Made by a program: the position numbers and the translations under genes. Source: a phage. From it: DNA of 64,000 nt. The notes below the pieces were generated by a model, which saw only the letters and a program-made list of their open reading frames with translations, was not told the origin of the DNA and ran no database searches. The DNA lies in assembly GCA_024683775.1 (NCBI GenBank), contig GCA_024683775.1_4106.1. The stretch is one strand, 5' to 3'. Positions 33,891-64,000 of this stretch are shown here, in pieces (within the stretch, counting starts at the first letter, position 1; every line of letters begins with the position of its first letter).

Positions 33891-33891
33891 T

Positions 33892-34236: not shown

Positions 34237-34418
34237 ATAAAAAAGAACAAATGGAATCATTCATGAATACAATACTTCGACGATTCGTAATTGATATTAG
34301 ACATAACAACAGCATTAGGAATGACATGTACTTCGGTACATATGATATTAGTGAATTGTATATAGCTAATATTCACATGGTTTACCGAGATTATATCAAG
34401 ACACAACACAGGAGTTGA
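34233..34418 (+). CDS. hypothetical protein (61 aa)
   Basis: ORF with ATGA overlap; possibly a divergent family A relative (MYFGTYD). Confidence 0.5.
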   Translation: MNKKEQMESFMNTILRRFVIDIRHNNSIRNDMYFGTYDISELYIANIHMVYRDYIKTQHRS

Positions 34419-34419
34419 T

Positions 34420-34890: not shown

Positions 34891-35327
34891 GTTTAGCAAG
34901 TGCACTTAAACTGGCACACAAAATACATCACTTCCACGATAACATAAAAAGTGGTTTCTATGGTGATAAAGTAAGTGCATTTGGTAATGAGTATTATCTA
35001 TCAGGTATAAAGACATACTCTGATGATATTTTACTTATGGGCCATGATAAAGACAATACTATACAGTACTCTTCATGTAGTCAATATACTAGTTTTTTTG
35101 TATATATTCCAGGTACTAAGATTACTTTTGACACATCAAATACACCTGTTGACTTCGGGGTACTTGATGGGCCGTGGGGTACTGAAGAGTATTACTTCCA
35201 ACAGAGTCTTATTTTTAACCAAGAAATGCTTGATTCCTTGGTTGTTTTGTGGTACTTTAAGGAATTGAATTTTGAACCCTTCTTCCTTGACTGGGGAGCA
35301 TGTGAATATTTAAGTACAGGGGATTAG
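34887..35327 (+). CDS. family B protein, MSxxSAL subgroup (146 aa)
   Basis: Motif TEEYYFQQSLIF followed by LVVLWYFKE. Confidence 0.7.
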   Translation: MSLASALKLAHKIHHFHDNIKSGFYGDKVSAFGNEYYLSGIKTYSDDILLMGHDKDNTIQYSSCSQYTSFFVYIPGTKITFDTSNTPVDFGVLDGPWGTEEYYFQQSLIFNQEMLDSLVVLWYFKELNFEPFFLDWGACEYLSTGD

Positions 35328-35329
35328 TA

Positions 35330-35821
35330 ATGTCATTAGAAAGTGCATTGAAAGAAGCAAAGAAGATTCATGAGTACATGATTATGGTACAAGAAGGTTC
35401 AGTGCCTGGTGTGTATAAAACATCTGATACTGAATTTTTTGTAAAAGACCGCGACGATTATGATGAGTCAGAGATATGTGCAGAAACGTTAGTACTACAC
35501 ACTGATACGGGTGATACTGATGACTGTGAATATCATATGTACAATCAGTACATTAGTTATTGTAGAGATGAAGATATTATAATTTACAGCCCTGATTACG
35601 ATGATGATGACACAATCATTCCGTATTCAGTACTAGAAGGTCCGTGGGATAGTGAAGAATATTACTTCCAGAACAGTACTGTGTACAATGAAGAAGAATT
35701 AGATGTTATTGTAATTATGTGGTACTTTAAAAGTATTGGTTCTGATAGTTTCTATTTCGATTATGAATACGTAGAGAATACTGTAGGGGAAGATAATGTC
35801 ATTACAAAGTGCACTGGATAA
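35330..35821 (+). CDS. family B protein, MSxxSAL subgroup (163 aa)
   Basis: Motif SEEYYFQNSTVY followed by IVIMWYFKS. Confidence 0.7.
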   Translation: MSLESALKEAKKIHEYMIMVQEGSVPGVYKTSDTEFFVKDRDDYDESEICAETLVLHTDTGDTDDCEYHMYNQYISYCRDEDIIIYSPDYDDDDTIIPYSVLEGPWDSEEYYFQNSTVYNEEELDVIVIMWYFKSIGSDSFYFDYEYVENTVGEDNVITKCTG

Positions 35822-36239
35822 AGCAAAAGAACTACAGGTATATATTGAAGATATCAAGGCTGGGAAGTTCGAAGAAGTATACAAAGCCGAGAATGGTAAC
35901 TACTACAAGGATAGTGATTTTACCACAACTACAGTTATTCTTGGGCTGAATTCCAAAAGTCCCGCAGATTTTTCACAATACAATCCAGATGCAGAATTTA
36001 TCAGTTATGCTTATGGTGGTGAAATCCGTTTTTATAATCGCAGCAGACCTTTAAAATTGAACTTTGAAGTACTGAAAGGTCCGTGGGATAGTGAAGAGTA
36101 TTACTTTCAGAATAGTACTTTGTATGATGATGAAGTACTAGATACTTTAGTTATTATGTGGTACTTTAAAAGTATTGATAGTACAAGATTTTATTTGGAT
36201 TATGAATATGTACGTGAAGCATATAAGGGCAAACGATGA
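35796..36239 (+). CDS. family B protein, MSxxSAL subgroup (147 aa)
   Basis: Motif SEEYYFQNSTLY followed by LVIMWYFKS. Confidence 0.7.
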   Translation: MSLQSALDKAKELQVYIEDIKAGKFEEVYKAENGNYYKDSDFTTTTVILGLNSKSPADFSQYNPDAEFISYAYGGEIRFYNRSRPLKLNFEVLKGPWDSEEYYFQNSTLYDDEVLDTLVIMWYFKSIDSTRFYLDYEYVREAYKGKR

Positions 36240-36550
36240 AATTCTTATACAGTATTCAGTACATTCCTGGTACAATTAGTTTAATGTATTTCTTCGATCA
36301 TGATAATTTCCAGCACCTTGCCGTTAGAAGATGTAATGAATCTTTAATGATTGAATATCTTCACGATTGTGATTATATTCCTGACTTCCTTGAATGTGAT
36401 TATAGAGATGATCATGAAACATTTCTTTTTCAGGAATCACTTGTATGGGATAAGAGAATTAATTTTCATGCCTTAATTGAGATACAAAAACAAGTGAAGT
36501 ACTACTGGGATTACTTAATTACCCAAGAATATATAGAGATTGAAATATAA
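36236..36550 (+). CDS. family B protein (104 aa)
   Basis: Motif ETFLFQESLVWD; ATGA overlap. Confidence 0.7.
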   Translation: MKFLYSIQYIPGTISLMYFFDHDNFQHLAVRRCNESLMIEYLHDCDYIPDFLECDYRDDHETFLFQESLVWDKRINFHALIEIQKQVKYYWDYLITQEYIEIEI

Positions 36551-37023
36551 TGTACGAAAGTGATCTTAAGCACGCTGAAGAATTAGTTAATATAGTAAAG
36601 TTCTTTCAAAATAATGTAAAGTACTTAGACTATAAAGGGGCATATATTAGTACTATAAGTGTTGGAACAGATATACTAGGATTAGGTAATGAATATAAGT
36701 ACGAGTCCCATGATTATGATTTGGAATTCAAGTACTTCGTATGGGATTCTGGAACTTTCTATTATATAGAGGAAGGTGGAAAATATTTTGAATTCACAGA
36801 AGAAGAAGTACTATTTTTAAATTCAGAAGATGCTTACTTCCAGTACAGTACTATATACCCAAATAGTGCATTAAGAGCTTTGGTAGTTTTTAATGCATTC
36901 CTGAAAGAGAACTTTAATAATTCTATATTCATTGATTTAGATTATGTATATGAACTAAATCAGGTGATATATATGGAGTCCAGAAAAAATGAGTTACGAA
37001 AGTGCAATCAAGAAAGCAAATGA
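36550..37023 (+). CDS. family B protein (157 aa)
   Basis: Motif EDAYFQYSTIYP. Confidence 0.7.
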   Translation: MYESDLKHAEELVNIVKFFQNNVKYLDYKGAYISTISVGTDILGLGNEYKYESHDYDLEFKYFVWDSGTFYYIEEGGKYFEFTEEEVLFLNSEDAYFQYSTIYPNSALRALVVFNAFLKENFNNSIFIDLDYVYELNQVIYMESRKNELRKCNQESK

Positions 37024-37435
37024 TATTCTAAAAGTTGTTAAGTTCTTCAAAGAAAATCCTGAATACGTAGATGATGAACGCAGAGAAGTTTCTAATGGTA
37101 CGAAGATTACAATTGATTCTTTATTTGACACTAGCAACAACAACTGTAGTACTATTGAATTAGCATACGATTATATTTCATTGAACAGAAAATATGATGA
37201 AGTTACGATAGAGCGTCATGAGAATGAAGAATCTTTTAAAATTTCTGATATTTTATCTCTGAGTACAGAAGAAGGGTACTTCCAGGGAAGTACTGTTTTT
37301 AATGAAGGAACACTAGACAATCTATGTACATTTAGTGTACTATATCAGAAGTCAGTACTGGATATATTTTATCTAGACACTGAAAAACTTGATAGGTTAG
37401 TTGATTTCGTTACTATAGAAGAGGCATCCGTTTGA
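36989..37435 (+). CDS. family B protein (148 aa)
   Basis: Motif EEGYFQGSTVFN; overlaps previous gene by 35 nt. Confidence 0.65.
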   Translation: MSYESAIKKANDILKVVKFFKENPEYVDDERREVSNGTKITIDSLFDTSNNNCSTIELAYDYISLNRKYDEVTIERHENEESFKISDILSLSTEEGYFQGSTVFNEGTLDNLCTFSVLYQKSVLDIFYLDTEKLDRLVDFVTIEEASV

Positions 37436-37968
37436 GAAAAATTAACATTAATGATTACAATGCATTACAAGATTTATCAAAAAAGATTCGCACTATCGTA
37501 CCAGTACTGAAAAAATGCAGTACTGGATTAATTGATCCTAGTACTGTTGTTAATGAGAAGTACAATTTTCATTATGTATTACAGGGTACTGGGGCATTCC
37601 AGAAGTGTGAGGTGCGTGAGAAACACGTAATTGATACATCATTGTTTTCTATTGGTGCACCTATGTCGAATAATACTATTTTCCTGGATGACGCAGGAAA
37701 TATTCAACAATTAACATTTAAGAAAAGGAAAAAGAACAATAACATTGGTGTGTACGCGATGAAGTGGGGTCAACCTGATTTGAAGCGTGAAATTCACATC
37801 CCTAAGTACAATTACAATTCATTTGAAGAACAGTGCTTTCAACTATCTTGTACTGACCCTGACTATGCTATCATTCAGTTCTATATGGAATTGCAGATTG
37901 CATTTAACAGTAATTTGTATATTAACTTATTGGCGATGAACATCGATGAAGTATTCAAAAACATTTAA
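37432..37968 (+). CDS. family B protein (178 aa)
   Basis: Motif EEQCFQLSCTDP; ATGA-type overlap. Confidence 0.65.
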   Translation: MRKININDYNALQDLSKKIRTIVPVLKKCSTGLIDPSTVVNEKYNFHYVLQGTGAFQKCEVREKHVIDTSLFSIGAPMSNNTIFLDDAGNIQQLTFKKRKKNNNIGVYAMKWGQPDLKREIHIPKYNYNSFEEQCFQLSCTDPDYAIIQFYMELQIAFNSNLYINLLAMNIDEVFKNI

Positions 37969-38164
37969 TCGAATTGAATACATGAGAACTGTGAGTGCAG
38001 TGTGGGACATATGGTTCACTACTAAACCAAAAATGGATTACCATGACTTTAAGCTATTGTTCTTCGTTGGCTCTAACAAACAGGATGTTGCAATGAAGGG
38101 TTATATTCAGCACTTACAGGAACTAATCCAGAAGAGAATATATGAAAATAATAGACCAAGATGA
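37946..38164 (+). CDS. family A-like small protein (72 aa)
   Basis: Motif VGSNKQDVAMKGYI; inside array B. Confidence 0.65.
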   Translation: MKYSKTFNRIEYMRTVSAVWDIWFTTKPKMDYHDFKLLFFVGSNKQDVAMKGYIQHLQELIQKRIYENNRPR

Positions 38165-38333
38165 TATTGCTAAACTATTCAATATATATTCTTCTAAAAT
38201 GATGCAAACCGACTCATATAGTACTGAATTCAAAGAATTAAAAGTACTGATGTATTTGGGCACACAGTATCAGGAACAAGTTGTTAAAGAATATATTGAT
38301 TCTTTACAGAAGGATATCCGTTATGTACAATGA
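38142..38333 (+). CDS. family A small protein (63 aa)
   Basis: Motif LGTQYQEQVVKEYI; inside array B. Confidence 0.7.
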   Translation: MKIIDQDDIAKLFNIYSSKMMQTDSYSTEFKELKVLMYLGTQYQEQVVKEYIDSLQKDIRYVQ

Positions 38334-38877
38334 ACTTGACTTGGCATTTGAGCGTGTAAAAATCTTCATTGAAACTTATATTATGCATGAAACTATACTG
38401 AAAACAAAAGGAATATGGTTCACTGATAAATTTCTTACTATGGCTATGAGAGGTGGAATGAAACATCTGTACTGCACAGATAATTCAAGAATTTCAGTAC
38501 TGAATTATGATGAAAGTGTAGCATCCAGTACCAGTTTAATTTCTACATACAATGATAATGTTATTAGTATTATGTGCAATATGAATGTCCCATCTATTTC
38601 TGTATATAAAAACTGTGATAGTTCATTGGAGTACAAGATTGAGCAGTACTTATATCCTAACACAGAAGAAAACATCTTTCAAAATAGTCTTATGTGGGAT
38701 GATACATCTACTAAGTGCATATATCTTTATAATAAATTAAAAGAGTACATTGTTGATAGTTCAATTAGTACTGCTGTATTCAGTGTTACTGTTTTTAATG
38801 ATAATCGTGAAGATATGAGTTATTACAGAGACATTGTAAGAATACATGCAATGTATAAGGATCTACTATGTTATTAA
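38323..38877 (+). CDS. family B protein (184 aa)
   Basis: Motif EENIFQNSLMWD; trimmed from TTG-start track ORF 38281. Confidence 0.65.
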   Translation: MYNELDLAFERVKIFIETYIMHETILKTKGIWFTDKFLTMAMRGGMKHLYCTDNSRISVLNYDESVASSTSLISTYNDNVISIMCNMNVPSISVYKNCDSSLEYKIEQYLYPNTEENIFQNSLMWDDTSTKCIYLYNKLKEYIVDSSISTAVFSVTVFNDNREDMSYYRDIVRIHAMYKDLLCY

Positions 38878-39470
38878 ATGCAAATAAATGTTGTAGTACT
38901 GAGGTTCATTTGTATTTTAAGAAATTAGTAAATGATATTATCTATATGCAAGAAATCATTTATCACAAAAGAATGGACTTAGAAAAAGCATTAGTTCAGT
39001 TCTCTTTTAATCTCGATGGTGATATATCGTTAGATGGTGATGGATTGCGTATAGCATTTGACGGTAATACAAATAGGGTTTTCTTTTGGATAGATAATAA
39101 ATTATGTTCATCAATATGTCGTACTTTTTATAACCCTATTTCGGACTTATATCAATTGGTGTATTCTAAAGGTGCAGTAGAAGCATCATACGGTGATAGC
39201 TTTGCACTAGGAAAGAGTATCCCATATATGCAATCATTTGATATTGAATTAGTCAGTACTGATGAAGATGCGATGTTCACAAATGATATAACAATGCAGC
39301 GTGAATCTGCAATGAGATATATTACAAATTCTATGCATACATTCTTCGAAAGAACAGAATTTGATAATGTGTATATAGCAAATGTAAATATTTTTACTGA
39401 CCTTTGTCAGTTCTTGAGAAGTATTTTTGATTTCGATGAAAGCTATTGTAAGCTTTATACTGAGGTTTAA
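38868..39470 (+). CDS. hypothetical protein (200 aa), possibly divergent family B
   Basis: ORF in array; motif weak. Confidence 0.55.
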   Translation: MLLNANKCCSTEVHLYFKKLVNDIIYMQEIIYHKRMDLEKALVQFSFNLDGDISLDGDGLRIAFDGNTNRVFFWIDNKLCSSICRTFYNPISDLYQLVYSKGAVEASYGDSFALGKSIPYMQSFDIELVSTDEDAMFTNDITMQRESAMRYITNSMHTFFERTEFDNVYIANVNIFTDLCQFLRSIFDFDESYCKLYTEV

Positions 39471-39475
39471 ATGCC

Positions 39476-39835
39476 ATGAATACCATTAGTATTACGTACT
39501 ACACAACGAAAAAATACGTTTGTTGTTTACTTTCGTTAAAGACAAATGATGATATGTTTGAAATGGCGGCATATACATTAGAATTATCAGAAGATGGTTT
39601 TCAATGTCATGAAGCGTACTCAAATACACGTGAAGATACAATTGATACTACGCTAATGCAAGAAGATGAGTTATTTCAAGAAAGTTTAGTATGGGATAAA
39701 AAATACTATTGTGATTTTGATTTTCTTTGTTTAATCCAGAAAGAAATGAAAAGGATCTTCGACAATTATCCGGTGAAGAGATTGAGTACTAAGCCGGAGC
39801 AGTACAGGAGAATTTTATTCCGTTATGAAGACTGA
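39476..39835 (+). CDS. family B protein (119 aa)
   Basis: Motif EDELFQESLVWD. Confidence 0.7.
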   Translation: MNTISITYYTTKKYVCCLLSLKTNDDMFEMAAYTLELSEDGFQCHEAYSNTREDTIDTTLMQEDELFQESLVWDKKYYCDFDFLCLIQKEMKRIFDNYPVKRLSTKPEQYRRILFRYED

Positions 39836-40163
39836 ATTAGTAAAAATAATGTACGCAACTCACACTAAGTTATTATTGGTTAAAATGAATTATAACAGAA
39901 AACATAATGAATTCTGTACATTAATCCGAAATGAGGAATCATTTACATTGCGTACCAATGATAAGCCAATGCTAACTATAAATGATTTTTCATGTTTAGA
40001 TACAGGTGAATTGTTCCAGGAGTCATTAGTACTGGATAGTAGTATACATTTGGAAATTGAAGTACTACAACAGTACCAGATACTTTTGAATCGTATTATG
40101 GAAAATTATCCATGTGAAGTTGGTGGACCAATGCAATTCAAATCAAAGATGTATGAACTATGA
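39825..40163 (+). CDS. family B protein (112 aa)
   Basis: Motif TGELFQESLVLD. Confidence 0.7.
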   Translation: MKTELVKIMYATHTKLLLVKMNYNRKHNEFCTLIRNEESFTLRTNDKPMLTINDFSCLDTGELFQESLVLDSSIHLEIEVLQQYQILLNRIMENYPCEVGGPMQFKSKMYEL

Positions 40164-40170
40164 GGTTAGT

Positions 40171-40704
40171 ATGTTAGATAAAATAAAGAACGAGGGAACT
40201 CTATACAATCATCTTAAGTTGGATACGTTCGAGGCAGCAATCAGTACTGCACAAGATATAATTGATATTATCAAGTACATTAAAGAAAATAAGTTAAAAT
40301 GTGTGAAAACGCCAGAACGTACAATATACAAAGATGACGACCTTCACGTATCAGTTGTTAAGCCAAAAGATAAGGATGGTAATAGAGATTTCTATAATAA
40401 CAGTGGACAGTATGAATGTGAATATGATCCCGAATTTAGAGGTGGATTCATGTGCTTCAGTAAAACAGATACTTCACATGTTGAGATACGTACATTAAAA
40501 GGTCTAGGTAGATTTGAGTTCATGGATATAGAACTAAATGAAGAAAACTACTTCCAACAATCATTACTTAACACTGAATACAATTTAGGTGTACTATTCA
40601 TGTACAAGTACTTATATGAGCACTTAAATGAAGACTTCTATCTGGACTTAGAAGATTACCATTTAGTATGGAAAGAAATGGTAGAACTTCGTGAGAACTA
40701 TTGA
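40171..40704 (+). CDS. family B protein (177 aa)
   Basis: Motif EENYFQQSLLNT; trimmed from track ORF 40114. Confidence 0.65.
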   Translation: MLDKIKNEGTLYNHLKLDTFEAAISTAQDIIDIIKYIKENKLKCVKTPERTIYKDDDLHVSVVKPKDKDGNRDFYNNSGQYECEYDPEFRGGFMCFSKTDTSHVEIRTLKGLGRFEFMDIELNEENYFQQSLLNTEYNLGVLFMYKYLYEHLNEDFYLDLEDYHLVWKEMVELRENY

Positions 40705-40730
40705 CACCCTCCAAATCTTTGTGATATAAT
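40701..40730 (+). promoter_or_regulatory. sigma70-like promoter (TTGACA-18-TATAAT)
   Basis: Hexamers read directly upstream of CDS 40764. Confidence 0.55.
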
Positions 40731-40763
40731 CTCTTTATATTAATTGTAAAGGGTTATATCACT

Positions 40764-41243
40764 ATGTCCAAAGACCTATCATTTAGCAATGCACAAAAAA
40801 TCGCACAAAATATCATTAAACTTCATAAGTTCTTTGTAACAGTTAAAGAGAATATAATTCTCCCACGATGCACACTTTATGCGTACAAAAATTATTTGTC
40901 AATGAATAGCAATTTGTTGCATACTACAGATGAGAATTTCTGTGGTATTCGTGTACTTGACGATGCACCATCAGGGGATTTTATCTCATATTGTTTCCAT
41001 ACATCTGATAGTTTTAAGTACTATCATCCTAGATCTAATGATGATGATGAATATGACACATTTAATGTTAGATCAGAAGAAGAATTCTTCCAGTACAGTA
41101 CTTTGTACAATGAGAGAATCGTGTTTAGTTCTACAATTTTTACAGTACTTAAAGATGAACTCAATGACGCAAATGATAGATTCTATATGGATTTAAACTT
41201 CGTAGATGAAATCATTGAGTACATGGAGAAAAATGGTCTATGA
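40764..41243 (+). CDS. family B protein, MSxxSAL-like subgroup (159 aa)
   Basis: Motif EEEFFQYSTLYN. Confidence 0.7.
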   Translation: MSKDLSFSNAQKIAQNIIKLHKFFVTVKENIILPRCTLYAYKNYLSMNSNLLHTTDENFCGIRVLDDAPSGDFISYCFHTSDSFKYYHPRSNDDDEYDTFNVRSEEEFFQYSTLYNERIVFSSTIFTVLKDELNDANDRFYMDLNFVDEIIEYMEKNGL

Positions 41244-41722
41244 TTACAACAGAATATGATTACGATGGTGTTTTAGAATTTGCATCTAACATTCATCGCA
41301 TTGCAAAGGAGTTCAGAAGTCCCCAACCTTTCGGTGGAATGCCTTTTGGTGGAATGTTCCAATATGACCAATTCAGTTCAACCAAAGGAAGACTTGCCTT
41401 TAAAAATAATAAGGGCAATCAAGTATATGCTGAGTTCTTTGACGATAATGACTTTCACTACAGAGCTGAATATATTTCATATTGCCAAGGGTCTGATTTG
41501 AAGATTAACATTGATACATTTAGAGATTCAGTGTTTATCCCTTATAGTGAGTTAGTTTTCATGACAGAAGAAATGTACTTCCAAGGGTCTTGTATTCATG
41601 ATGCAAAAGTACTTAATGCTATATTACTTTATGGTGCACTACTTCATCATTACAAATACAAACAACGATTCTTTATAGATTTAGTTGTATACCATCAATG
41701 CGTGGATTATTTGAATGCATAA
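41240..41722 (+). CDS. family B protein (160 aa)
   Basis: Motif EEMYFQGSCIHD; ATGA overlap. Confidence 0.7.
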   Translation: MITTEYDYDGVLEFASNIHRIAKEFRSPQPFGGMPFGGMFQYDQFSSTKGRLAFKNNKGNQVYAEFFDDNDFHYRAEYISYCQGSDLKINIDTFRDSVFIPYSELVFMTEEMYFQGSCIHDAKVLNAILLYGALLHHYKYKQRFFIDLVVYHQCVDYLNA

Positions 41723-42077
41723 TACAACAACAATTCAGTACATGACGGATGGCAATGATTGCTTTGCTTCAAGATATGAATTCATCAAGAACCATTTCGT
41801 AACCTATATCCCTGAATATAATCAGTTTTATCTACAGATTTACCAAAATGATTCATATATGAATGAGATATATTCTGAAATAAAAATCCCTGATTATAGT
41901 ACTTTATCAGAAGAGGAATTGTTTCAGGAGAGCACTGTCAATACTGAAGATGTGTACGAACTAATGGAATACCAGAAGGTACTTAAATATTTCCATGAAG
42001 TTCAGGATATACAAATGGATAGTGTTAAAACGTGGAATTATAACACATACGAGGTAAATTATGTTCGAAATGATTAA
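41715..42077 (+). CDS. family B protein (120 aa)
   Basis: Motif EEELFQESTVNT. Confidence 0.7.
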   Translation: MHNTTTIQYMTDGNDCFASRYEFIKNHFVTYIPEYNQFYLQIYQNDSYMNEIYSEIKIPDYSTLSEEELFQESTVNTEDVYELMEYQKVLKYFHEVQDIQMDSVKTWNYNTYEVNYVRND

Positions 42078-42474
42078 AATTATGCAACGATGCATTGTTG
42101 ACCAACATGGAATATATGGATATAGTTTAAGTGCAGCTATTGACAAAAACAAAACAACATATGTAAGCTATAATGCAGTACTTGGATTTGATATATTCAT
42201 TAATGCCAACAATAAAATCAAACAAGCCAAGGATGTATCTATAATGACCCCTGATGAGCTATTTCAGTACAGCTTAGTTCTGCCGGGCTGTATTGATTTA
42301 CAACGTCTAGGAGCTATACAGAAGGTTTTACGCGAACATAAAGTACAACCAAATAAAATCACACACATTCCAGAAACATTCTACAAACCCATAGAAGTAG
42401 AAACACCTGATTATATGTTAAGTGATGATGAGTTCTACGAGAAACACTTCCCTGGTAAAGTTTGGAGAGACTAA
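42061..42474 (+). CDS. family B protein (137 aa)
   Basis: Motif PDELFQYSLVLP. Confidence 0.7.
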   Translation: MFEMIKIMQRCIVDQHGIYGYSLSAAIDKNKTTYVSYNAVLGFDIFINANNKIKQAKDVSIMTPDELFQYSLVLPGCIDLQRLGAIQKVLREHKVQPNKITHIPETFYKPIEVETPDYMLSDDEFYEKHFPGKVWRD

Positions 42475-42956
42475 TGAACCGAAAGTACAGAGAAACTATG
42501 AAGTTCGCTAAGGAGTGTTTAGAGACAATTGATTTCATTTTCGATAACAAAGACTCATTGGGCCGTCACTTCGTAATTACAAAGAAAGAAGATAAGAGAT
42601 ACAAGTGTCAACGATTAGGATACAGTATTGAGTTCTCCTTAATGATTGATGGCATGATAAACTCCTTATATGAATGTGGTAAGACTTATTACATTTCATT
42701 TAGATCTTGGAGTGAACGTGTCATGTTCTTGACTCCAAATGGAGTTGTATATCCTTTTCTTGATGATTTATCAGAAGAAAGTTACTTTCAAAATAGTTTA
42801 ATTTACACAGAAAAAGAACTCAAAATGCTATTCATTATGTCGTACTTTAAAAAGTACTGCAAATTTAAATCATTAGCTTTTGAGATTTCTGCAATGAAAG
42901 TATTCATTAAAAATGTAAAAGAATTAAAGAGGATTTACGATGTACATAGAAAATGA
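42462..42956 (+). CDS. family B protein (164 aa)
   Basis: Motif EESYFQNSLIYT followed by LFIMSYFKK. Confidence 0.7.
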   Translation: MERLMNRKYRETMKFAKECLETIDFIFDNKDSLGRHFVITKKEDKRYKCQRLGYSIEFSLMIDGMINSLYECGKTYYISFRSWSERVMFLTPNGVVYPFLDDLSEESYFQNSLIYTEKELKMLFIMSYFKKYCKFKSLAFEISAMKVFIKNVKELKRIYDVHRK

Positions 42957-46775: not shown

Positions 46776-47278
46776 GTTTATTAAATGCACGAGAATTAGT
46801 TGAGATGTATGAGATCTTATCTTCATATAAAAATTCCCCAAAAGATGTAATTCTAAACAAAAAGTTCCATGTCAGTGTTGAACATATAACAAATATAGAT
46901 ATGATTTCTTTGGTGGAAAGTAATAAGTCAGGTCTGGAGCGTGATATCATGCGTTTGATTTATATTCCTAAACCATCATATACTAATGATAGTACTATTA
47001 GCAATGAGACATTCATGTATAGTCCTGGTACGGATTCTACTATAGTATCGCTGTCAAATAAATCAATGGATACTTTCCAATTCATCTATACCAGTACTGA
47101 TAACATTGAAGAAAATGAATTCCAAAACAATACATTAAGTTCATGTAGTAGTGTTATAACCTTTATGTCATATCTGTGGTCAATCAAATCAAATGCAATT
47201 GTATATAGTTCTAATTACACACAAGATAGTATTGTTGAATCATTTAAAGTTCTAAAGGAATACTATGAAAATAACTAA
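46772..47278 (+). CDS. family B protein (168 aa)
   Basis: Motif EENEFQNNTLSS; ATGA overlap. Confidence 0.65.
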   Translation: MSLLNARELVEMYEILSSYKNSPKDVILNKKFHVSVEHITNIDMISLVESNKSGLERDIMRLIYIPKPSYTNDSTISNETFMYSPGTDSTIVSLSNKSMDTFQFIYTSTDNIEENEFQNNTLSSCSSVITFMSYLWSIKSNAIVYSSNYTQDSIVESFKVLKEYYENN

Positions 47279-47846
47279 TGATTTTATTAGAAGCTTAGTG
47301 CACCCTATGCTTGGTGTTATGAAAAAATTACAAACTCTACCTGAAGACAACGATTACAAGTTTAATCGTTTTGATTCAGATGTGTTTTGTATTGAAATGG
47401 AAATTAATAACAATCGTTATTTTCATTTAAAATTCAAAGAATCGTCGAGTTCGCACTACAACTTTGACATGAATTTTAAAATAAGCAATGATATTGAAGA
47501 AAACGCAATATCAAATCATATTAGCAGAAATGGTTTCATGCATAGAACTAATATGTTCAATAATAAAAACAGTATTATATCTAAATGGAATCATCAATTC
47601 ACTAAAATTTGTGATATTGATTGCAGTACATTTGGTGAAGAACAATACTTTCAGTTAAGTACAATACATGAACTTCCACCATATGATTGTGTAAAAACAT
47701 GGTTTGATATTCATAATATAATTGATGATGCAATCGTACTTCCATTTGGGTTGTCAATATCATATACTGCACCTAAAACGTTTGTTTTTACTGAAGATAT
47801 GATTATGAAAAAGATATGGGCGATGATGCCACTTATGCTTGATTAA
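47265..47846 (+). CDS. family B protein (193 aa)
   Basis: Motif EEQYFQLSTIHE; paralog of 47858. Confidence 0.7.
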   Translation: MKITNDFIRSLVHPMLGVMKKLQTLPEDNDYKFNRFDSDVFCIEMEINNNRYFHLKFKESSSSHYNFDMNFKISNDIEENAISNHISRNGFMHRTNMFNNKNSIISKWNHQFTKICDIDCSTFGEEQYFQLSTIHELPPYDCVKTWFDIHNIIDDAIVLPFGLSISYTAPKTFVFTEDMIMKKIWAMMPLMLD

Positions 47847-47857: not shown

Positions 47858-48409
47858 ATGAATCAAAGTCATGATCTTTTTAAATTATGTGCATCCAAAG
47901 ATGTGGAAGGATGGGCAGATAAAATCAATACAATTATTAACCGTTATCTTGGCTTCTGTGCACGTTCACGAAGTGAAGGTTCAATGCGTTTCCAAATAAC
48001 CATGACAATCGATGGTGTTACGATTTATGTCAACGAAGAGCGTCTTGGTATTATTCTCTATGATAGTTGTGTCTTTGCTATTCACCAGAAAATGGGGGCA
48101 GGTTGGGGTTGTAATAATATGAACACCAATGCTTTTTTCTGGGTAGGTCATAGCAACACAGTACTTGATCCTTCAAAGAAATCAAACCTTTTAGATGATA
48201 ATTTGGTATATGATTTAGCTTACTCTGAAGAACAACATTTCCAGTTAAGTACAATACATAGCTTAGTTCAATATGAAGATTGTATCAAAGCATTAGAATT
48301 ATGTCATTCACTTGAACTTAAAGAAAAATTGATACAAATTTACCCGTTGTTCTTCCATGAAGAAGTACAATGCACACTAGATCATATTTTATATGGGTAC
48401 GACAAATGA
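47858..48409 (+). CDS. family B protein (183 aa)
   Basis: Motif EEQHFQLSTIHS. Confidence 0.7.
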   Translation: MNQSHDLFKLCASKDVEGWADKINTIINRYLGFCARSRSEGSMRFQITMTIDGVTIYVNEERLGIILYDSCVFAIHQKMGAGWGCNNMNTNAFFWVGHSNTVLDPSKKSNLLDDNLVYDLAYSEEQHFQLSTIHSLVQYEDCIKALELCHSLELKEKLIQIYPLFFHEEVQCTLDHILYGYDK

Positions 48410-57986: not shown

Positions 57987-58266
57987 TGATTCGAATCTAA
58001 CAGGTTATTTTTTGCAAGAATCAATGATCAAATTCAGTGAACATTTTCCAGTACTAGATGGTGTGGAGATGTGGCATGTAAAACCACTCTTCCACACTTT
58101 CAGTAAAGAGCACAAAATGTTATTGACTGAGGCTTGTAAATCGAATAAAATATGCCAAATCAAGATTGGTGTAAATGTCTACAAAGGATTAGTCATCTTT
58201 TTTGACAACAACAGCAACTACTTTTATATTGTTAAGGAGCATTACGTTGACAAATACAAATACTAA
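57979..58266 (+). CDS. hypothetical protein (95 aa)
   Basis: ORF overlapping previous stop; trimmed from TTG-start track ORF 57958. Confidence 0.55.
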   Translation: MSDDSNLTGYFLQESMIKFSEHFPVLDGVEMWHVKPLFHTFSKEHKMLLTEACKSNKICQIKIGVNVYKGLVIFFDNNSNYFYIVKEHYVDKYKY

Positions 58267-58861
58267 TACATACTTTCGTTATCTTCGCCTAGGGCTTTCC
58301 CTACGCCCAATCCGTGGTAAGTGTGATTCACTTGCTGATTTGGATTATGCATATGCATTACATTGTGATGGTGTTCAATATGTATTAGGTGACTATGGCA
58401 CATTCGAAGAATCCAATGACAGTTCAGAAATTATTGCTGGTGTTGCTAACCTTAACAACATTGCCAATAGTTCTCGTCATGAAATCGTTCTTGAAATTCA
58501 GAACTTCATTGAGAAAAATACTGGCAAGCGTACATGGTCATATGTCGGTACTGATGCACAAATGTCAATCGCATTTGGTAACGAAGATGGTTATGTAGCA
58601 CAACTTATTATGGATTTTGAATCAGAAGAGAAGTTCCAAGAATACAAAGAAAAAATCATCCAATCCTTATTGCAAATGGGTATTCCTGAAGATCGTATGC
58701 CTGAAATTCAAAGCATTGATGAGTTTGTTCTTATCCCATCTGATGAAAAATATGATGCGATGTTCACAGCACTGAACATTCCTGGTGTAGTGGTTGAGTA
58801 CTTCGATGATGGTGATAGTGACATTTACCTAGATCTCGACGACGATGATGACGATGAATAA
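58202..58861 (+). CDS. hypothetical acidic protein (up to 219 aa; start uncertain)
   Basis: Long ORF with poly-Asp C-terminus; track start is TTG 65 nt inside previous gene; no in-frame ATG until far downstream. Confidence 0.5.
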   Translation: MTTTATTFILLRSITLTNTNTNTYFRYLRLGLSLRPIRGKCDSLADLDYAYALHCDGVQYVLGDYGTFEESNDSSEIIAGVANLNNIANSSRHEIVLEIQNFIEKNTGKRTWSYVGTDAQMSIAFGNEDGYVAQLIMDFESEEKFQEYKEKIIQSLLQMGIPEDRMPEIQSIDEFVLIPSDEKYDAMFTALNIPGVVVEYFDDGDSDIYLDLDDDDDDE

Positions 58862-58867
58862 TACATA

Positions 58868-58896
58868 TAGCCCGACATAAGTTCGGGCTATTTTTG
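58868..58896 (+). terminator. rho-independent terminator
   Basis: Hairpin TAGCCCGAC-ATAAG-TTCGGGCTA followed by TTTTT. Confidence 0.75.
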
Positions 58897-58907
58897 TAAG
58901 GGGAAAT

Positions 58908-59177
58908 ATGAATTACAAACATATACAATTCACTTATATGGAATTATTTAAATTACACCACAATCACCGAAGTACTAACACAATTAATAAAAATGCGTTT
59001 ACCCATAAAATATGGTCAAATTATCTAGAAGAATTACGTGAGTATTTTGTTAATACTGAAATTGTCATTAATGGAAAAAAACGAAAGATACTTAGAGTAG
59101 ATAGTTTCGGTGGTAGATTAGTACTTTCATATAAATTTGATAACGACCTATTCTCTGTGGATTTGGTGAATATATGA
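58908..59177 (+). CDS. family C protein (89 aa)
   Basis: N-terminal motif HIQFTYMELF; SD AAGGGGAAAT upstream. Confidence 0.65.
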   Translation: MNYKHIQFTYMELFKLHHNHRSTNTINKNAFTHKIWSNYLEELREYFVNTEIVINGKKRKILRVDSFGGRLVLSYKFDNDLFSVDLVNI

Positions 59178-59434
59178 ATTATAAAGATTTCCAATTAACA
59201 TTCAAGTGCATTCGTGACCTAGCAAATAAAAATAATAGTATATTTTTAGAAGATACATGTAATGAAATGATTAATACTGTGCGTGAGAGGATTAAAGAAA
59301 AATTCAGTACTGTAATTATTAATAACGATCATGCAGAATTTTCAGATATAATCATTAAGCTCGATGGTAAAGTAGAGGTACAGTTCTACACTGATTTTGG
59401 ATTTACGAGTGTTCCTCTGGAGATATTCCCTTGA
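59174..59434 (+). CDS. family C protein (86 aa)
   Basis: N-terminal motif DFQLTFK; ATGA overlap. Confidence 0.65.
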   Translation: MNYKDFQLTFKCIRDLANKNNSIFLEDTCNEMINTVRERIKEKFSTVIINNDHAEFSDIIIKLDGKVEVQFYTDFGFTSVPLEIFP

Positions 59435-59742
59435 AATTAAATTTGAATGATGTTCAATTCACATATAAAAATATATACGGTTTGTATGACATGTATCTTT
59501 TTAGTGGGAAGATTGGTGAACATGTAGAATCAAAAGAATCACCATTTATTCATAATTACTATGATTACTTAGATTCTATTGCTGAATATATAAAAAAGAA
59601 TTACAGTACTTACACTGATGGCGATGATATATTCGAATATTCAGGTGTCAAATCTTATCAAGGTATTATCCATGTAGAATTTCTTGAAAAAACTGATAGG
59701 GAATTTATGGAGATCAAAGTTTTGAAGTTGACAGACCTATAA
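59431..59742 (+). CDS. family C protein (103 aa)
   Basis: N-terminal motif DVQFTYKNIY; overlap. Confidence 0.65.
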   Translation: MKLNLNDVQFTYKNIYGLYDMYLFSGKIGEHVESKESPFIHNYYDYLDSIAEYIKKNYSTYTDGDDIFEYSGVKSYQGIIHVEFLEKTDREFMEIKVLKLTDL

Positions 59743-59752
59743 GGATTGACAT

Positions 59753-60064
59753 ATGAATCTTAATGATATACAATTCACATACAAATTTTTGTATATCCAA
59801 TACGCTACGGTTGATGCTGGAGAATATCTCTACGGTGAAATCTATCGTTCGGTATGGATAAAGTTTTTGGATGAATTACATGAATATTACCATGATTTGT
59901 GTATAGTTCGTGATAATAAAATATACAAATTCCGCGATATTGTTAGTCATAGCGGTAAGCTACGATTGGAATTAAGTACTGATAGTGATGTTGATTGGAT
60001 TGGTGTAAATTTACTGGAGTTGGAGAATGAAAAACAACTTAAAGGAAATACAAGTATTTTATAA
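59753..60064 (+). CDS. family C protein (103 aa)
   Basis: N-terminal motif DIQFTYKFLY; SD AAGGATTGA upstream. Confidence 0.65.
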   Translation: MNLNDIQFTYKFLYIQYATVDAGEYLYGEIYRSVWIKFLDELHEYYHDLCIVRDNKIYKFRDIVSHSGKLRLELSTDSDVDWIGVNLLELENEKQLKGNTSIL

Positions 60065-60311
60065 ATTCTTATACTTGTCATATGTAAAAGATGAGTACTA
60101 TGAAAGTGTGTATTATTTTTTATGGCAACATTACCGTACTATAGTAAGAGATTTATATATAGGAAAATCTATCATATCCAATGGTGAAAAATGTATATGT
60201 ACTGATGTTGTTAGTTTTAATGGTTCTTTAACACTGTGTTTCAGATGCGATAATAATAGTGGGTCATTTTCATTAAACGTATATCAGTTAGAAGGAATAA
60301 ATTTTGAATAA
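60027..60311 (+). CDS. family C protein (94 aa)
   Basis: N-terminal motif EIQVFYKFLY; SD GGAGTTGGAGA upstream; overlaps previous gene. Confidence 0.6.
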   Translation: MKNNLKEIQVFYKFLYLSYVKDEYYESVYYFLWQHYRTIVRDLYIGKSIISNGEKCICTDVVSFNGSLTLCFRCDNNSGSFSLNVYQLEGINFE

Positions 60312-60504
60312 ATGTCCATATTGCAACAGTACTCAATTAGCTCGTTTCCGTTTAGATTCAGACTGGGCCACTGGTGCTGGTGATTTCTTTCCCATCAATG
60401 ATGATTCGGAATACACTGAAGAACAGCACAAAGATTTCGATAAATCATGGCGACCTGACATTGAGTGCATTTATTGCCTTAATTGTGAGCGTATCCATGA
60501 CTAA
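60304..60504 (+). CDS. zinc-ribbon protein (66 aa)
   Basis: Two CxxC pairs (CPYC ... CLNC) about 45 residues apart. Confidence 0.6.
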   Translation: MNKCPYCNSTQLARFRLDSDWATGAGDFFPINDDSEYTEEQHKDFDKSWRPDIECIYCLNCERIHD

Positions 60505-60760
60505 AGCTGAACTGATCGTGCAAACACTGCGTTTATTGAGGGATTTAGATATCCCACGCATGGATGTGAAACTTGAAGATATCTACATTGAATCTCTTAG
60601 TGAAGATTACACCGATACCGTAATGATGCTGAATGACGTGCTTTATCGTATAGATAGCATCAGTCGTCTTGGAAGTACTTTAAAAGTGAATATGGAAAGA
60701 GTTGATAAACTTTACGTACATATATATAGTCTACCCATTTCAATATTAAACTATAGATGA
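60497..60760 (+). CDS. hypothetical protein (87 aa)
   Basis: ORF overlapping previous stop; trimmed from track ORF 60374. Confidence 0.5.
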   Translation: MTKAELIVQTLRLLRDLDIPRMDVKLEDIYIESLSEDYTDTVMMLNDVLYRIDSISRLGSTLKVNMERVDKLYVHIYSLPISILNYR

Positions 60761-61047
60761 ATATTATATTGATACAAAAAACATATGCTATACTGATGAA
60801 AGAATATGATAAAATTTATGATGAAAAGTGTAGTGCAAGTCATAATATGTATAAATTCATTACTCAAGAGTACAGGGATTATATATATGCTGTGTTAGTG
60901 GGTAGATATTTCAGTACTAGAAAATACCCAAAACTTCAAATAGTTGATGTTTCTTTTTATTTCAATGGTCATATTACTATTCATAGTTTAGACCAAGATT
61001 CAACAACGTACTTAAACTTTTCATTTGATGAGGTAACATTTTTATGA
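60757..61047 (+). CDS. hypothetical protein (96 aa)
   Basis: ORF; ATGA overlap. Confidence 0.6.
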   Translation: MNIILIQKTYAILMKEYDKIYDEKCSASHNMYKFITQEYRDYIYAVLVGRYFSTRKYPKLQIVDVSFYFNGHITIHSLDQDSTTYLNFSFDEVTFL

Positions 61048-61217
61048 GAACAGTATTTTTTATCTGGAGTCTTTTTTCATTGGCAGTACTGACAGCTTCA
61101 GGTGCTTATTCCTTTTTAACAATGAACACATGGTATGTTAATTTACTATTCCCAATTGTTGGTGTTGGTTTAGGATTTACTTTACATAGTGTTTGTAAGG
61201 ATTTTAATGGCAAATAA
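61044..61217 (+). CDS. small membrane protein (57 aa, two hydrophobic segments)
   Basis: ORF not in track; ATGA overlap with previous stop. Confidence 0.45.
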   Translation: MRTVFFIWSLFSLAVLTASGAYSFLTMNTWYVNLLFPIVGVGLGFTLHSVCKDFNGK

Positions 61218-61491
61218 ATCGAATGAAGTACTTGTTGCTGAAACAATGAAGATGGTTTATGCCATAACAACTAGTAATGATTTGTCTTACCCAATTAAGT
61301 CCAAGTTGAGGGATATAACTCTTCAGGTTATACAGCAGTACTACAAATCTAAACACAAAAGTATTATTAGTGTTTATCGTGATTATGAAAGGATTCGTAT
61401 TCTGTTCTGGAACAAGAACCGAGTTCGTGAGGAATGTGATATAGAGAACTTTAAATTTGAGAATCTTTATTGTTACAAAGCGGGACAATAG
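61207..61491 (+). CDS. hypothetical protein (94 aa)
   Basis: ORF; SD TAAGGA upstream; trimmed from track ORF 61189. Confidence 0.55.
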   Translation: MANKSNEVLVAETMKMVYAITTSNDLSYPIKSKLRDITLQVIQQYYKSKHKSIISVYRDYERIRILFWNKNRVREECDIENFKFENLYCYKAGQ

Positions 61492-61549
61492 CTCAAGTAG
61501 TGATATAATATTGGATGAGGAACAATAACTAACACAAGGAGTGTGTAAA

Positions 61550-62278
61550 GTGCTTGACCGTATCCGTTTCGCTACAGAGATGGCGAATGAATTAAACATG
61601 GCAAATTTTCAAATGTTAACATCAGTGATGGCTGAACATGCATGTGCTTATTCTGTAAGTGGTGTGCAGTGCGGTCAGGAGAATATGTTAGCAGATGTAT
61701 ATAGCGAAGTTCAAAGTAAACAATACAGTGTAAAGACGTACAAGGATAAGTTCGTTAGTCTTTATATGAATGAAGACATTGCAGAAGACCGCAAATATAC
61801 TGATTTTATTATTGAACGAAGAGTATCAGGTGTATCCAACCCAAATGCTGACAGTACTACAGTATTTGAAGAAGTACTTCAAGATATATATGAAAATGAA
61901 TTGAAAAGTAAGAATCATTACAATGTACGTGAAACTAACACAGTGCTCTTGGGATATGATGAAGACGATCAATATTATTATTTCCGTATGACTGAAGTTC
62001 CTTTTGAATATAAATCACCAAGTACTACTGCTGTAAAAGAATTTACCGAGAAAAGCAAGAACTACAAGAAACATGAAGGCAACCGTTGTAGTATAAATGG
62101 TTATAATGAAGATGGTGTTCATATATATGAATGGGTTCATCCTAATTGCCAGACATATACCCGTTGCTTGAAGAAACGTTATAATTTAGAAGACAATGAA
62201 TCCTTCTACTTTAAAGTTAAGAAACAAGGCTATACTCGCCCTGAAGATTCAGAATTGATGGGTATGGTATATTTCTAA
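61550..62278 (+). CDS. hypothetical protein (242 aa; probable GTG start)
   Basis: Long ORF; SD AAGGAG 8 nt before GTG at 61550; first in-frame ATG only at 61583. Confidence 0.6.
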   Translation: MLDRIRFATEMANELNMANFQMLTSVMAEHACAYSVSGVQCGQENMLADVYSEVQSKQYSVKTYKDKFVSLYMNEDIAEDRKYTDFIIERRVSGVSNPNADSTTVFEEVLQDIYENELKSKNHYNVRETNTVLLGYDEDDQYYYFRMTEVPFEYKSPSTTAVKEFTEKSKNYKKHEGNRCSINGYNEDGVHIYEWVHPNCQTYTRCLKKRYNLEDNESFYFKVKKQGYTRPEDSELMGMVYF

Positions 62279-62287
62279 GGAACTGTT

Positions 62288-62569
62288 ATGGATTTTTACC
62301 TACACACATGGTCATACGAACAATACATTACATTATATCTTGAGATTATTAATACTGATCCCAGATATGGTTGTGATTTTGCTGATATTATAAAAGAGTA
62401 TGCAGATGAGTTTGAGTTTGTATATCTTGGCTCTGACCTATTCGTGAAGAGTGTAGGTAAAACCGGACGCATCACTGAGATTGATTATGATACTGTTAGT
62501 GTGAATTTCTATGTTGATTTTCCTTGTGATGGCGTTGATGGTGTATATTGTCTATATGAAATAATTTAA
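62288..62569 (+). CDS. hypothetical protein (93 aa)
   Basis: ORF; SD TAAGGAA upstream; terminator downstream. Confidence 0.65.
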   Translation: MDFYLHTWSYEQYITLYLEIINTDPRYGCDFADIIKEYADEFEFVYLGSDLFVKSVGKTGRITEIDYDTVSVNFYVDFPCDGVDGVYCLYEII

Positions 62570-62576
62570 ATTTTGA

Positions 62577-62600
62577 GGCCAGCGTTTGCTGGTCTTTTTT
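62577..62600 (+). terminator. rho-independent terminator
   Basis: Hairpin GGCCAGC-GTTT-GCTGGTC followed by TTTTTT. Confidence 0.7.
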
Positions 62601-62613
62601 CGCAGGTACAAAG

Positions 62614-62916
62614 ATGATTAGTATAGATTTAATTAACAGTACTATAAAGTTGTTGGCTGATGTAGTGAGAGAATCCAATGGAACTGTATACACATCAATG
62701 TATAAAATCTTTGAACGATACATCAAGGATTGTAATATATCCTTATATGGACTGGCTGTTGATATAGACGACCACTATGAAATTAATACTTCATATAAAA
62801 CTGGAATGTTAATTGGTATTAATATAAAGATGGGATATTTTCCTTATTACTGTATAGGATTACCAGATAGTACTATGGTAGATTACCCAGCCAGTACTAT
62901 TAAACTAAGAGGATAG
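62614..62916 (+). CDS. hypothetical protein (100 aa)
   Basis: ORF after terminator; SD-like CAGG upstream. Confidence 0.55.
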   Translation: MISIDLINSTIKLLADVVRESNGTVYTSMYKIFERYIKDCNISLYGLAVDIDDHYEINTSYKTGMLIGINIKMGYFPYYCIGLPDSTMVDYPASTIKLRG

Positions 62917-62920
62917 AATT

Positions 62921-63610
62921 TTGATTAAAGATTTAGATAGAATTTTATATGTACTGAGGGGTGTAATTACATTACAACCACAGGTTAATCGTATGGAGAG
63001 AGCCTTTGAATTAAAATCAAGAGAAACTCCATATTCACATATATCAAATGTAGTTGGATCATTCAGTGCTGAAGACTCGCCTTATGATATTTGTGTATGT
63101 GAAGTACAGCCAAGTTCGGATCTTGGATTTGCTATTTTTGATAAAAATCAAAATCTAATTAGTATGTTTCAGTGCAATAATCCTTTTTGGAAAACATGCC
63201 TGTATCCAGAGTGGGCTATGCTTGATCCAACCAAGAGTTCCATTAAAGTATATGACTCTAAAAATGATGAAGTCGTTATTGATTTGGATGAGTCAATGTC
63301 AGAGGAAGAACACTTTCAGCTAATGATGATGCGTGCTATGCCTGAATACAATGCAATGATTAACACTGTGCAATACATTAAGGATACCATGCCATCGTTG
63401 CGTACACATGAGTTTTGTCATCCGGTATTGTATGAACATTTGGATTTAGATTTCAGTACTATTAAATTTAAAGATAATGTTATTAATTACATTCAAGAGA
63501 ATGTTAAATTTGATTTTATTAGTACAATGACAAATAATCCAAATACTAATTTCAGGCATCAGTACAATGAATCTTTGTCTGGTGGTCGTGATACAACTTG
63601 GTGGAAATAA
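62921..63610 (+). CDS. hypothetical protein (229 aa) with family B-like motif
   Basis: Long ORF; motif EEEHFQLMMMRA resembles the family B core. Confidence 0.6.
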   Translation: MIKDLDRILYVLRGVITLQPQVNRMERAFELKSRETPYSHISNVVGSFSAEDSPYDICVCEVQPSSDLGFAIFDKNQNLISMFQCNNPFWKTCLYPEWAMLDPTKSSIKVYDSKNDEVVIDLDESMSEEEHFQLMMMRAMPEYNAMINTVQYIKDTMPSLRTHEFCHPVLYEHLDLDFSTIKFKDNVINYIQENVKFDFISTMTNNPNTNFRHQYNESLSGGRDTTWWK

Positions 63611-63611
63611 T

Positions 63612-63875
63612 ATGAATATCCAAGATAGATTGCAATTGTTGCACACACTTGAAGAAGCTGCTTTTGAACTTGTTAATAAAATTGCACAAGAACTCCCAAA
63701 AGGAACCAAAGTTCGTGTTCGTGAAATGGATTATTTAACGGGAAAAATTGATGAAAAAGTTCTAACAGTGATCAAAGTAACATACTATGAATCAGAGTTA
63801 TCAATTCAATGTAATTCAGATAATGGTTACGTTTCCTACTATGGCACAGATGTAGATATAGAGGTAATAAAATGA
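63612..63875 (+). CDS. hypothetical protein (87 aa)
   Basis: ORF 1 nt after previous stop; SD TGGTGGAAATA upstream; trimmed from track ORF 63567. Confidence 0.6.
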   Translation: MNIQDRLQLLHTLEEAAFELVNKIAQELPKGTKVRVREMDYLTGKIDEKVLTVIKVTYYESELSIQCNSDNGYVSYYGTDVDIEVIK

Positions 63876-64000
63876 CCCTTTTACAAATATATGAAGATTT
63901 AATGCACTTATGTAATACTCGTGAGGCTTTCTTTTATGTGGATCATAAAAGTCCTGCTGGTGGAACATATCGTGTATTCAGTTATCGTCTAGCATCATAT
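63872..64000 (+). CDS. rnlA: RNA ligase 1, T4 RnlA-like, N-terminal fragment (continues past window end)
   Basis: Translation MTLLQIYEDLMHLCNTREAFFYVDHKSPAGGTYRVFSYRLASY matches the T4 RnlA N-terminus as recalled (..NLMELC...FFYSDD...GRTYRIFSYNYASY); ATGA overlap. Confidence 0.8.
   Translation, partial: MTLLQIYEDLMHLCNTREAFFYVDHKSPAGGTYRVFSYRLASY
63956..63963 (+). other. Chi octamer GCTGGTGG
   Basis: Exact match inside the RNA ligase gene. Confidence 0.8.

Follow-up and report, generated by a model that had tools for sequence, protein, structure and literature searches.

In bacteriophage T4 the product of gene 63, RNA ligase 1 (Rnl1, RnlA), is known to fulfill two functions, acting both as an RNA ligase and in the attachment of tail fibres. 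Within this enzyme Arg54 and Lys75 are essential, and the C-terminal domain confers specificity for tRNA (PMC6379707). In Klebsiella phage RaK2, an RNA ligase (gp464) and a polynucleotide kinase (gp470) have been described as RNA repair proteins belonging to a tRNA repair pathway (PMC3622015). An rnlA-pseT tRNA repair pair, probably countering Prr-type anticodon nucleases, has been both annotated and proposed in print for the phage group considered here; the rnlA gene is likewise discussed in the literature, and neither the gene nor its probable role is new.

The sequence analysed here is a 64,000-nucleotide stretch of phage DNA (the window), the last open reading frame of which was described in the initial annotation as resembling the N-terminus of T4 RnlA and as anchoring the window in a T4-like genome. 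Our analysis suggests, with a probability of roughly 0.9, that positions 63872-64000 represent the 5' end of rnlA from an Asteriusvirus (121Q/PBECO4-type) jumbo coliphage, and that the full gene, as read from relatives, would encode a protein of 380 aa, an ATP-dependent RNA ligase belonging to the T4 Rnl1 family.

Identity of the truncated reading frame

The reading frame begins with an ATG at 63872-63874 on the plus strand and is free of stop codons through base 64000, providing 43 codons of an ORF that continues beyond the window. Its translation, MTLLQIYEDLMHLCNTREAFFYVDHKSPAGGTYRVFSYRLASY, corresponds to the beginning of an Rnl1-type N-terminal sub-domain and is without any catalytic motif. 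This sub-domain (T4 residues ~1-70), which lies ahead of the nucleotidyltransferase core, is the only family feature that can be checked on the window's own sequence, and it is present, as judged from alignment to T4 residues 3-43 and to positions 2-41 of the TIGR02308 profile.

When the 43 residues were compared with 177,635 PDB sequences using phmmer, the sole matches were three T4 Rnl1 entries (2C5U, 5TT6, and 9DO4), with E-values ranging from 2.8e-6 (2C5U) to 3.5e-6 and query residues 4-43 aligned to T4 residues 3-43. Similarly, the fragment is matched by PHROG 562, named 'RNA ligase and tail fiber protein attachment catalyst' (E=4.6e-8), and by TIGR02308, 'T4 RnlA family RNA ligase' (E=6.5e-7), the latter with 28.8 bits, 43 aa alone being too short to reach the cut-off of that model. 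A tblastn comparison with the complete T4 genome returned rnlA as the sole match (46.5% identity over 43 aa, E=1e-9). A Pfam search of the 43-aa fragment gave zero matches, a silence on residues 1-43 that arises because the RNA_lig_T4_1 match on the full-length protein starts only at residue 55. The resemblance to the T4 RnlA N-terminus is thus borne out by the PDB, PHROG, TIGR02308, and T4 comparisons, and all matches obtained in asking whether the fragment resembles RNA ligases point to the T4 Rnl1 family. T4 RNA ligase 2 (Rnl2, RnlB) was ruled out as an alternative identity, as both the fragment and the full protein match rnlA alone in T4 and never rnlB.

Full-length RnlA in related phages

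Nine records of Asteriusvirus jumbo coliphages encode exactly these 43 residues (100% identity), and about 24 more match them at ~95% identity; in Ecwhy_1, fEgEco12, and ph0011 the CDS is annotated as starting at the position that corresponds to window 63872. Residues beyond the first 43 are taken from relatives rather than from the window genome, specifically from Ecwhy_1 and fEgEco12, to which the last 6 kb of the window are 98.4% identical and the last 401 nt fully identical. In Ecwhy_1 the rnlA ORF extends to 380 aa, and its product scores 291.3 bits on TIGR02308, as compared with an equivalog cut-off of 242.25. The same protein contains the Pfam domains RNA_lig_T4_1 (PF09511, E=6e-14, from residue 55) and T4_Rnl1_C (PF20819, E=1.7e-16, residues 268-379), the latter being the Rnl1-specific all-helical C-domain, and matches PDB entry 2C5U with E=7e-57.

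Conservation of motifs I, III, IV, and V and of the ATP contacts was scored on these relatives, outside the window. The KxDG motif, which the initial annotation proposed to recover by extending the window, was found as K104-L-D-G in Ecwhy_1 and fEgEco12, the relatives identical over the last 401 nt; this motif I aligns with T4 K99-E-D-G and lies ~61 codons past base 64000. All of the T4 residues R54, K75, F76, F77, K99, D101, G102, E159, E227, G228, K240, and K242 are kept in Ecwhy_1, ph0011, and K64-1, comprising the ATP contacts of the N-terminal sub-domain (R54, K75, F76/F77) together with motif III (E159), motif IV (E227-G228, within EGFV), and motif V (K240 and K242, within KIKTDWY). Judged from sequence, the ORF is a genuine homologue of RnlA within the Rnl1 family.

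Linkage to pseT and proposed role in RNA repair

In the relatives, pseT is located ~0.8 kb 3' of rnlA and in the same orientation, with three small ORFs between the two genes. The pseT product is a 310-aa polynucleotide kinase/phosphatase with a P-loop kinase domain and a Pfam HAD_PNKP domain (E=6e-43), and is 33% identical to that of T4 (E=5e-41). In T4 the order in the direction of transcription is rnlA, alc, pseT.3, pseT.2, pseT.1, pseT, and an arrangement of rnlA, small ORFs, and pseT is also observed in a Gelderlandvirus, a Schizotequatrovirus, and Alcyoneusvirus K64-1. The three small ORFs belong to PHROGs without an assigned function, no Pfam family was found for them, and comparison with T4 alc and pseT.1-3 yielded no homology (best E=0.6). 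The linkage of rnlA to pseT is therefore conserved, and the intervening ORFs are not.

Given this T4-like placement of pseT downstream, the most likely role of RnlA would be the healing and sealing of tRNA broken by host anticodon nucleases, and the T4 healing-and-sealing pathway appears to be the best-supported mechanism. In such a scheme, the phage Pnkp encoded ~0.8 kb downstream would heal the ends of the break to 3'-OH and 5'-phosphate. The motif I lysine of RnlA (K104 of KLDG) would then be auto-adenylylated to give a lysyl-AMP intermediate, the AMP would be passed to the 5'-phosphate, and the 3'-OH would attack, sealing the break, with the Rnl1-specific C-terminal domain presumably steering the enzyme to tRNA. 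Homology, domain architecture, active-site residues, and pseT linkage are features of the sequences themselves, from which enzymatic activity, a tRNA substrate, and an anti-Prr role would be predicted.

The sole mildly unusual point is found in motif Ia, where T4 Lys119 is replaced by His (residue 125) in Asteriusvirus and in Alcyoneusvirus K64-1, while Lys is kept in three Straboviridae; the motif Ia Ser118 and the adjoining T4 K117 are both retained. Lys119 of T4 Rnl1 is said, in work from 2003 by Wang and colleagues, to be essential. In addition, RnlA of the jumbo-phage clade carries a ~17-19-residue insertion between motifs III and IV, and its C-terminus is 8-12 residues shorter than that of T4-like homologues. 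All three features count against the T4-type reading. At a stretch, they might mark the RnlA of RaK2/121Q-type jumbo phages as a distinct Rnl1 sub-clade, differing from T4 Rnl1 in substrate range or cofactor handling and acting, for example, on damage by anticodon nucleases other than PrrC or in the upkeep of the phage's own tRNAs. A related and likewise improbable explanation is that specificity in this clade has diverged toward other RNA damage, whether inflicted by RloC-type or other anticodon nucleases or affecting the phage's own tRNAs, or toward a non-tRNA substrate. Consistent with divergence, the His, the insertion, and the shorter C-terminus are common to Asteriusvirus and Alcyoneusvirus, and such phages encode tRNAs of their own, including eight in UE-S1 (PMC12805682) as well as those of RaK2 (PMC3622015). 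However, T4_Rnl1_C, the domain responsible for tRNA specificity in T4 (PMC6379707), is retained at E=1.7e-16, and the protein clears the equivalog-level model TIGR02308, both of which speak against such divergence.

Less probable still is the notion that RnlA serves mainly not in tRNA repair but in the second, non-enzymatic activity of T4 gp63, which promotes the joining of long tail fibres to the baseplate. PHROG 562 and many GenBank records are indeed labelled 'RNA ligase and tail fiber protein attachment catalyst', and the dual function of gp63 is stated in a note to the T4 record; yet the attachment-catalyst name represents a transfer by homology, and the tail fibres of RaK2, a phage of the sister genus, are described as consisting mainly of podovirus-like proteins, unlike the long tail fibres of T4 (PMC3622015). 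Moreover, every ligase active-site residue tested is kept, which argues for selection on catalysis, and the kept linkage to pseT points to RNA repair. Although ligase and attachment roles of RnlA are not separable by sequence analysis here, tRNA healing and sealing thus remains the favored role.

Genome identity and relationship to T4

Jumbo phages of Escherichia and Salmonella, with genomes of 310-386 kb, account for the records in which the 43 residues are matched; 121Q, PBECO4, phAPEC6, slurp01, Ecwhy_1, and fEgEco12 are among them. The closest relatives of the window share 95-98% nucleotide identity and have genomes of 348-386 kb, and every record with at least 84% nucleotide identity comes from a jumbo phage of 310-386 kb that is placed in Asteriusvirus. 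Of the five records whose taxonomy line was examined, ph0011, Ecwhy_1, vB_Ec-M-J, and TH47 are classified as 'Caudoviricetes; Asteriusvirus', with no family and not as Straboviridae; the fEgEco12 record gives no genus. Over its full length the window has no identical counterpart in the phage collection, the best records showing 95-98% identity with indels, and the window therefore represents one more isolate or variant of Asteriusvirus.

Relationship to T4 was assessed both within the window and in a complete relative. Aside from the rnlA fragment, none of the 273 window ORFs of at least 50 aa matches the whole T4 genome beyond chance, the two chance-level matches (E=0.003 and 0.009) including one on a shadow ORF. 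A search of the complete TH47 genome with T4 ORFs identified homologues of 39 T4 genes (E<=1e-5; 24-63% aa identity), which fall into replication and recombination (43, 41, 44, 46, 47, uvsX, uvsW, dda, rnh, topoisomerase 39/52/60, and DNA ligase 30), nucleotide metabolism (nrdA, nrdB, nrdD, nrdG, td, frd, cd, and tk), and morphogenesis (4, 5, 17, 18, 20, 21, and 23), in addition to a Seg-type endonuclease locus. Among the genes found, 17, 18, 20, 21, 23, 41, 43, 44, 46, 47, uvsX, and uvsW count as T4 core genes. The same search gave no matches in TH47 for 3, 8, 14, 16, 19, 22, 25, 33-36, 53, and 62, all of which are listed as missing in the description of RaK2, where 15 of the 38 genes of the T4 core genome, as defined by Petrov et al. 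(2010), are absent (PMC3622015). The 39 shared genes amount to ~1/7 of the genes of T4 and to a small fraction of a jumbo genome of 580-670 genes.

RnlA homologues were found in 1672 phage records, 1626 of them at <60% identity, a band that includes the Straboviridae matches. Outside Straboviridae, RnlA occurs in Alcyoneusvirus, in Streptomyces phages, and in Xanthomonas phages, and because of this distribution it cannot on its own anchor a genome as T4-like, contrary to what the initial annotation had claimed. The description of the genome as T4-like holds only loosely, in the sense of a distant superfamily relative that shares 39 genes in the case of TH47; it fails in the strict sense, the window belonging to an Asteriusvirus phage with relatives of 348-386 kb, as against roughly 160-250 kb in Straboviridae, and containing 273 ORFs without a T4 match.

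An origin in a true T4-like (Straboviridae) phage, with the rnlA fragment at the border of a canonical T4 core module, would accord with the preponderance of RnlA in Straboviridae (1626 of the 1672 records lying in the <60% band that holds them), with an rnlA...pseT order as in T4, and with the 39 T4 genes of a close relative, among them those for gp23, gp20, gp17, gp18, gp43, and gp41. Such an origin is nevertheless highly implausible, in that the records of at least 84% nucleotide identity are all 310-386 kb Asteriusvirus jumbo phages, T4 RnlA is just ~35% identical, and the remaining window ORFs lack a T4 match; at the level of family and genus it is refuted by the Asteriusvirus relatives and the lack of T4 matches among window ORFs. 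The least credible explanation, a chance match of a short AT-rich ORF fragment with no RNA ligase gene present, could appeal to the mere 43 codons available and to the silence of Pfam, but is ruled out by four independent and concordant searches (E 1e-9 to 3e-6) that converge on one family at matching N-terminal positions, by a Pfam silence that is expected with RNA_lig_T4_1 starting at residue 55, and by identical DNA in relatives that runs on into a full-length ligase. The sequence is accordingly best read as rnlA of an Asteriusvirus jumbo phage, and the genome label should be corrected from T4-like to the latter.

Genes upstream of rnlA and layout of the window

The features discussed in this section are collected in Table 1.

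Table 1. Features at and upstream of rnlA in the 64,000-nt window
Feature	Position	Strand	Remarks
rnlA 5' end (T4 RNA ligase 1 family), 43 codons	63872-64000	+	cut by window end
GAGG Shine-Dalgarno	63861-63864	+	7 nt 5' of rnlA ATG; read from sequence
Small gene, 87 aa, PHROG 28139, function unassigned	63612-63875	+	annotated g181 in fEgEco12; no Pfam family found
229-aa gene, PHROG 32531, function unassigned	62921-63610	+	paralog of 47265-47846 and 47858-48409
Tandem array, 4 paralogs, 89-103 aa	58908-60311	+	paralog array nearest upstream of rnlA
Tandem array, 30 paralogs, 63-94 aa	17653-25880 (plus 38142-38333)	+	head to tail, stop/start codons often overlapping
12-member paralog family, 103-138 aa	23584-42077	+	interleaved with 34420-42956 family
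6-member paralog family, 146-164 aa	34420-42956	+	interleaved with 23584-42077 family

The rnlA ATG shares the sequence ATGA with the TGA stop (63873-63875) of the gene upstream, for which the mechanical ORF spans 63567-63875 and the annotation in relatives begins at 63612. Overlaps of this kind between stop and start codons are typical of co-transcribed, translationally coupled genes, and the arrangement suggests co-transcription and translational coupling of the 87-aa gene with rnlA. More broadly, rnlA belongs to a long plus-strand run of closely spaced genes, and its translation is probably coupled to that of the preceding ORF. A promoter scan of 58000-64000 detected 28 sites, compared with 37.9 expected in shuffled sequences, and thus no sign of a dedicated rnlA promoter. 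No tRNA genes were found in the window, and rnlA is not situated beside a tRNA cluster here.

The five genes upstream of rnlA (61541-63875) all belong to PHROGs that are specific to the phage group and without an assigned function. Further upstream the plus strand is rich in paralogs: an all-against-all blastp comparison with a threshold of E<=1e-4 placed 65 of the 188 plus-strand ORFs in 10 families, the 30-member array being by far the largest in the window. The family member nearest rnlA, two genes before it, is the 229-aa gene, which belongs to a three-member family. Directly before the array at 58908-60311, positions 58867-58891 of the plus strand hold a GC-rich hairpin with a perfect 9-bp stem (ATAGCCCGA...TCGGGCTAT) and, after it, a T-run, an arrangement that resembles a terminator.

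The window is colinear with TH47 from 102728 to 39823, and its alignments with relatives consist of many pieces and contain indels, as befits a variable stretch. In TH47 no T4 homologue is encountered in the ~82 kb between rnlA (39.9 kb) and 122 kb, and the 33 kb that flank rnlA on its opposite side include pseT, a Seg endonuclease, DNA ligase, cd, nrdD, nrdG, vs.6, and nrdA.1; rnlA is the first T4-type gene after ~82 kb without a T4 homologue. At the opposite end, window positions 1 to ~21190 correspond to 2444-25175 of vB_Ec-M-J, a record in which 1-21525 is annotated as 'Direct Terminal Repeats'. The window probably starts, then, within the terminal repeat at the left end of the genome, and by the layout of the vB_Ec-M-J record it constitutes the left ~64 kb.

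These data agree with the earlier placement of paralog arrays upstream of a conserved T4-type gene, both in the 65 of 188 ORFs assigned to the 10 families and in the position of rnlA as the first such gene. The accompanying view of a hyperplastic region between conserved modules is upheld with respect to a plastic, paralog-rich stretch that ends at rnlA; the word 'between' is doubtful, however, because the other side of the stretch enters the 21.5-kb terminal repeat, which is the physical left end in vB_Ec-M-J. As such, rnlA serves chiefly as an orientation mark. It places the window in an Asteriusvirus jumbo coliphage, as the left ~64 kb of the genome, composed of the terminal-repeat region and a long block of ORFans and paralogs, and it marks the start of the first gene for which a counterpart in T4 can be recognised; the paralog arrays can be read in this context. 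By the same token, T4 gene order, promoters, and regulation should not be transferred to this genome as if it were T4-like.

Several local differences among relatives were observed in addition. Just upstream of rnlA, ~61500-62920 is a hot spot of variation, in which ph0011 contains an extra 1.5-kb gene and a 579-bp gene, TH47 shows 85% identity and ~0.96 kb of extra DNA at the junction of window positions 61553/61567, and Ecwhy_1 has the homologue of 61541-62278 marked as a misc_feature, not a CDS. Outside the window and just 3' of pseT, TH47 (MT446416) encodes at 36600-37028 a GIY-YIG Seg-like homing endonuclease with up to 67% identity to T4 SegD over 88 aa, carried on a ~770 bp insertion that is absent from the matching place in Ecwhy_1, fEgEco12, and ph0011. 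Lastly, short segments far from rnlA (~870-1201, ~7235, ~10966, and 14595-14789) resemble, at 75-92% nucleotide identity, small genes listed as hypothetical in coliphages that are unrelated and have genomes of ~130-150 kb, including Phapecoctavirus, Justusliebigvirus, and others, and also records labelled Campylobacter phage, which suggests that they are horizontally exchanged small early genes.

Comparison with known systems

T4 RNA ligase 2 resembles RnlA in being a T4-encoded, ATP-dependent RNA ligase of the same nucleotidyltransferase superfamily. It nevertheless shows no detectable similarity to either the fragment or the full protein, and is without the Rnl1 N-terminal sub-domain found in the window fragment.

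T4 RNA ligase 1 (gp63, RnlA; 2C5U, 5TT6) shares with the Asteriusvirus protein the N-terminal sub-domain, motifs I, III, IV, and V of the nucleotidyltransferase core, and the Rnl1 C-domain, as well as a co-oriented linkage to pseT. Differences between the two are also evident. Firstly, Asteriusvirus RnlA is only ~35% identical to that of T4 (127 of 354 aligned positions), with His in place of Lys119, ~17-19 additional residues before motif IV, and a shorter C-terminus. Secondly, the T4 genes alc and pseT.1-3 have no relatives among the ORFs that separate rnlA from pseT here. Additionally, the gene resides here in a 350-kb jumbo phage, as opposed to a 169-kb phage of the Tevenvirinae.

A closer counterpart is found in Alcyoneusvirus K64-1, whose RnlA is 64% identical over its full length and has the clade-specific His and insertion in common with the Asteriusvirus protein, and whose pseT, located 1.2 kb downstream of rnlA, is 65% identical; the Klebsiella phages RaK2 and K64-1 differ from the Asteriusvirus coliphages in both genus and host. 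Closest of all are the RnlA records of Asteriusvirus itself, namely QAY00613.1 (Ecwhy_1), WAE77034.1 ('RnlA family RNA ligase', ph0011), gene 438 of 121Q, and the 'RNA ligase 1 and tail fiber attachment catalyst' of phAPEC6, in which the start codon, the upstream overlap, and the gene order are as in the window, and which represent the same gene.
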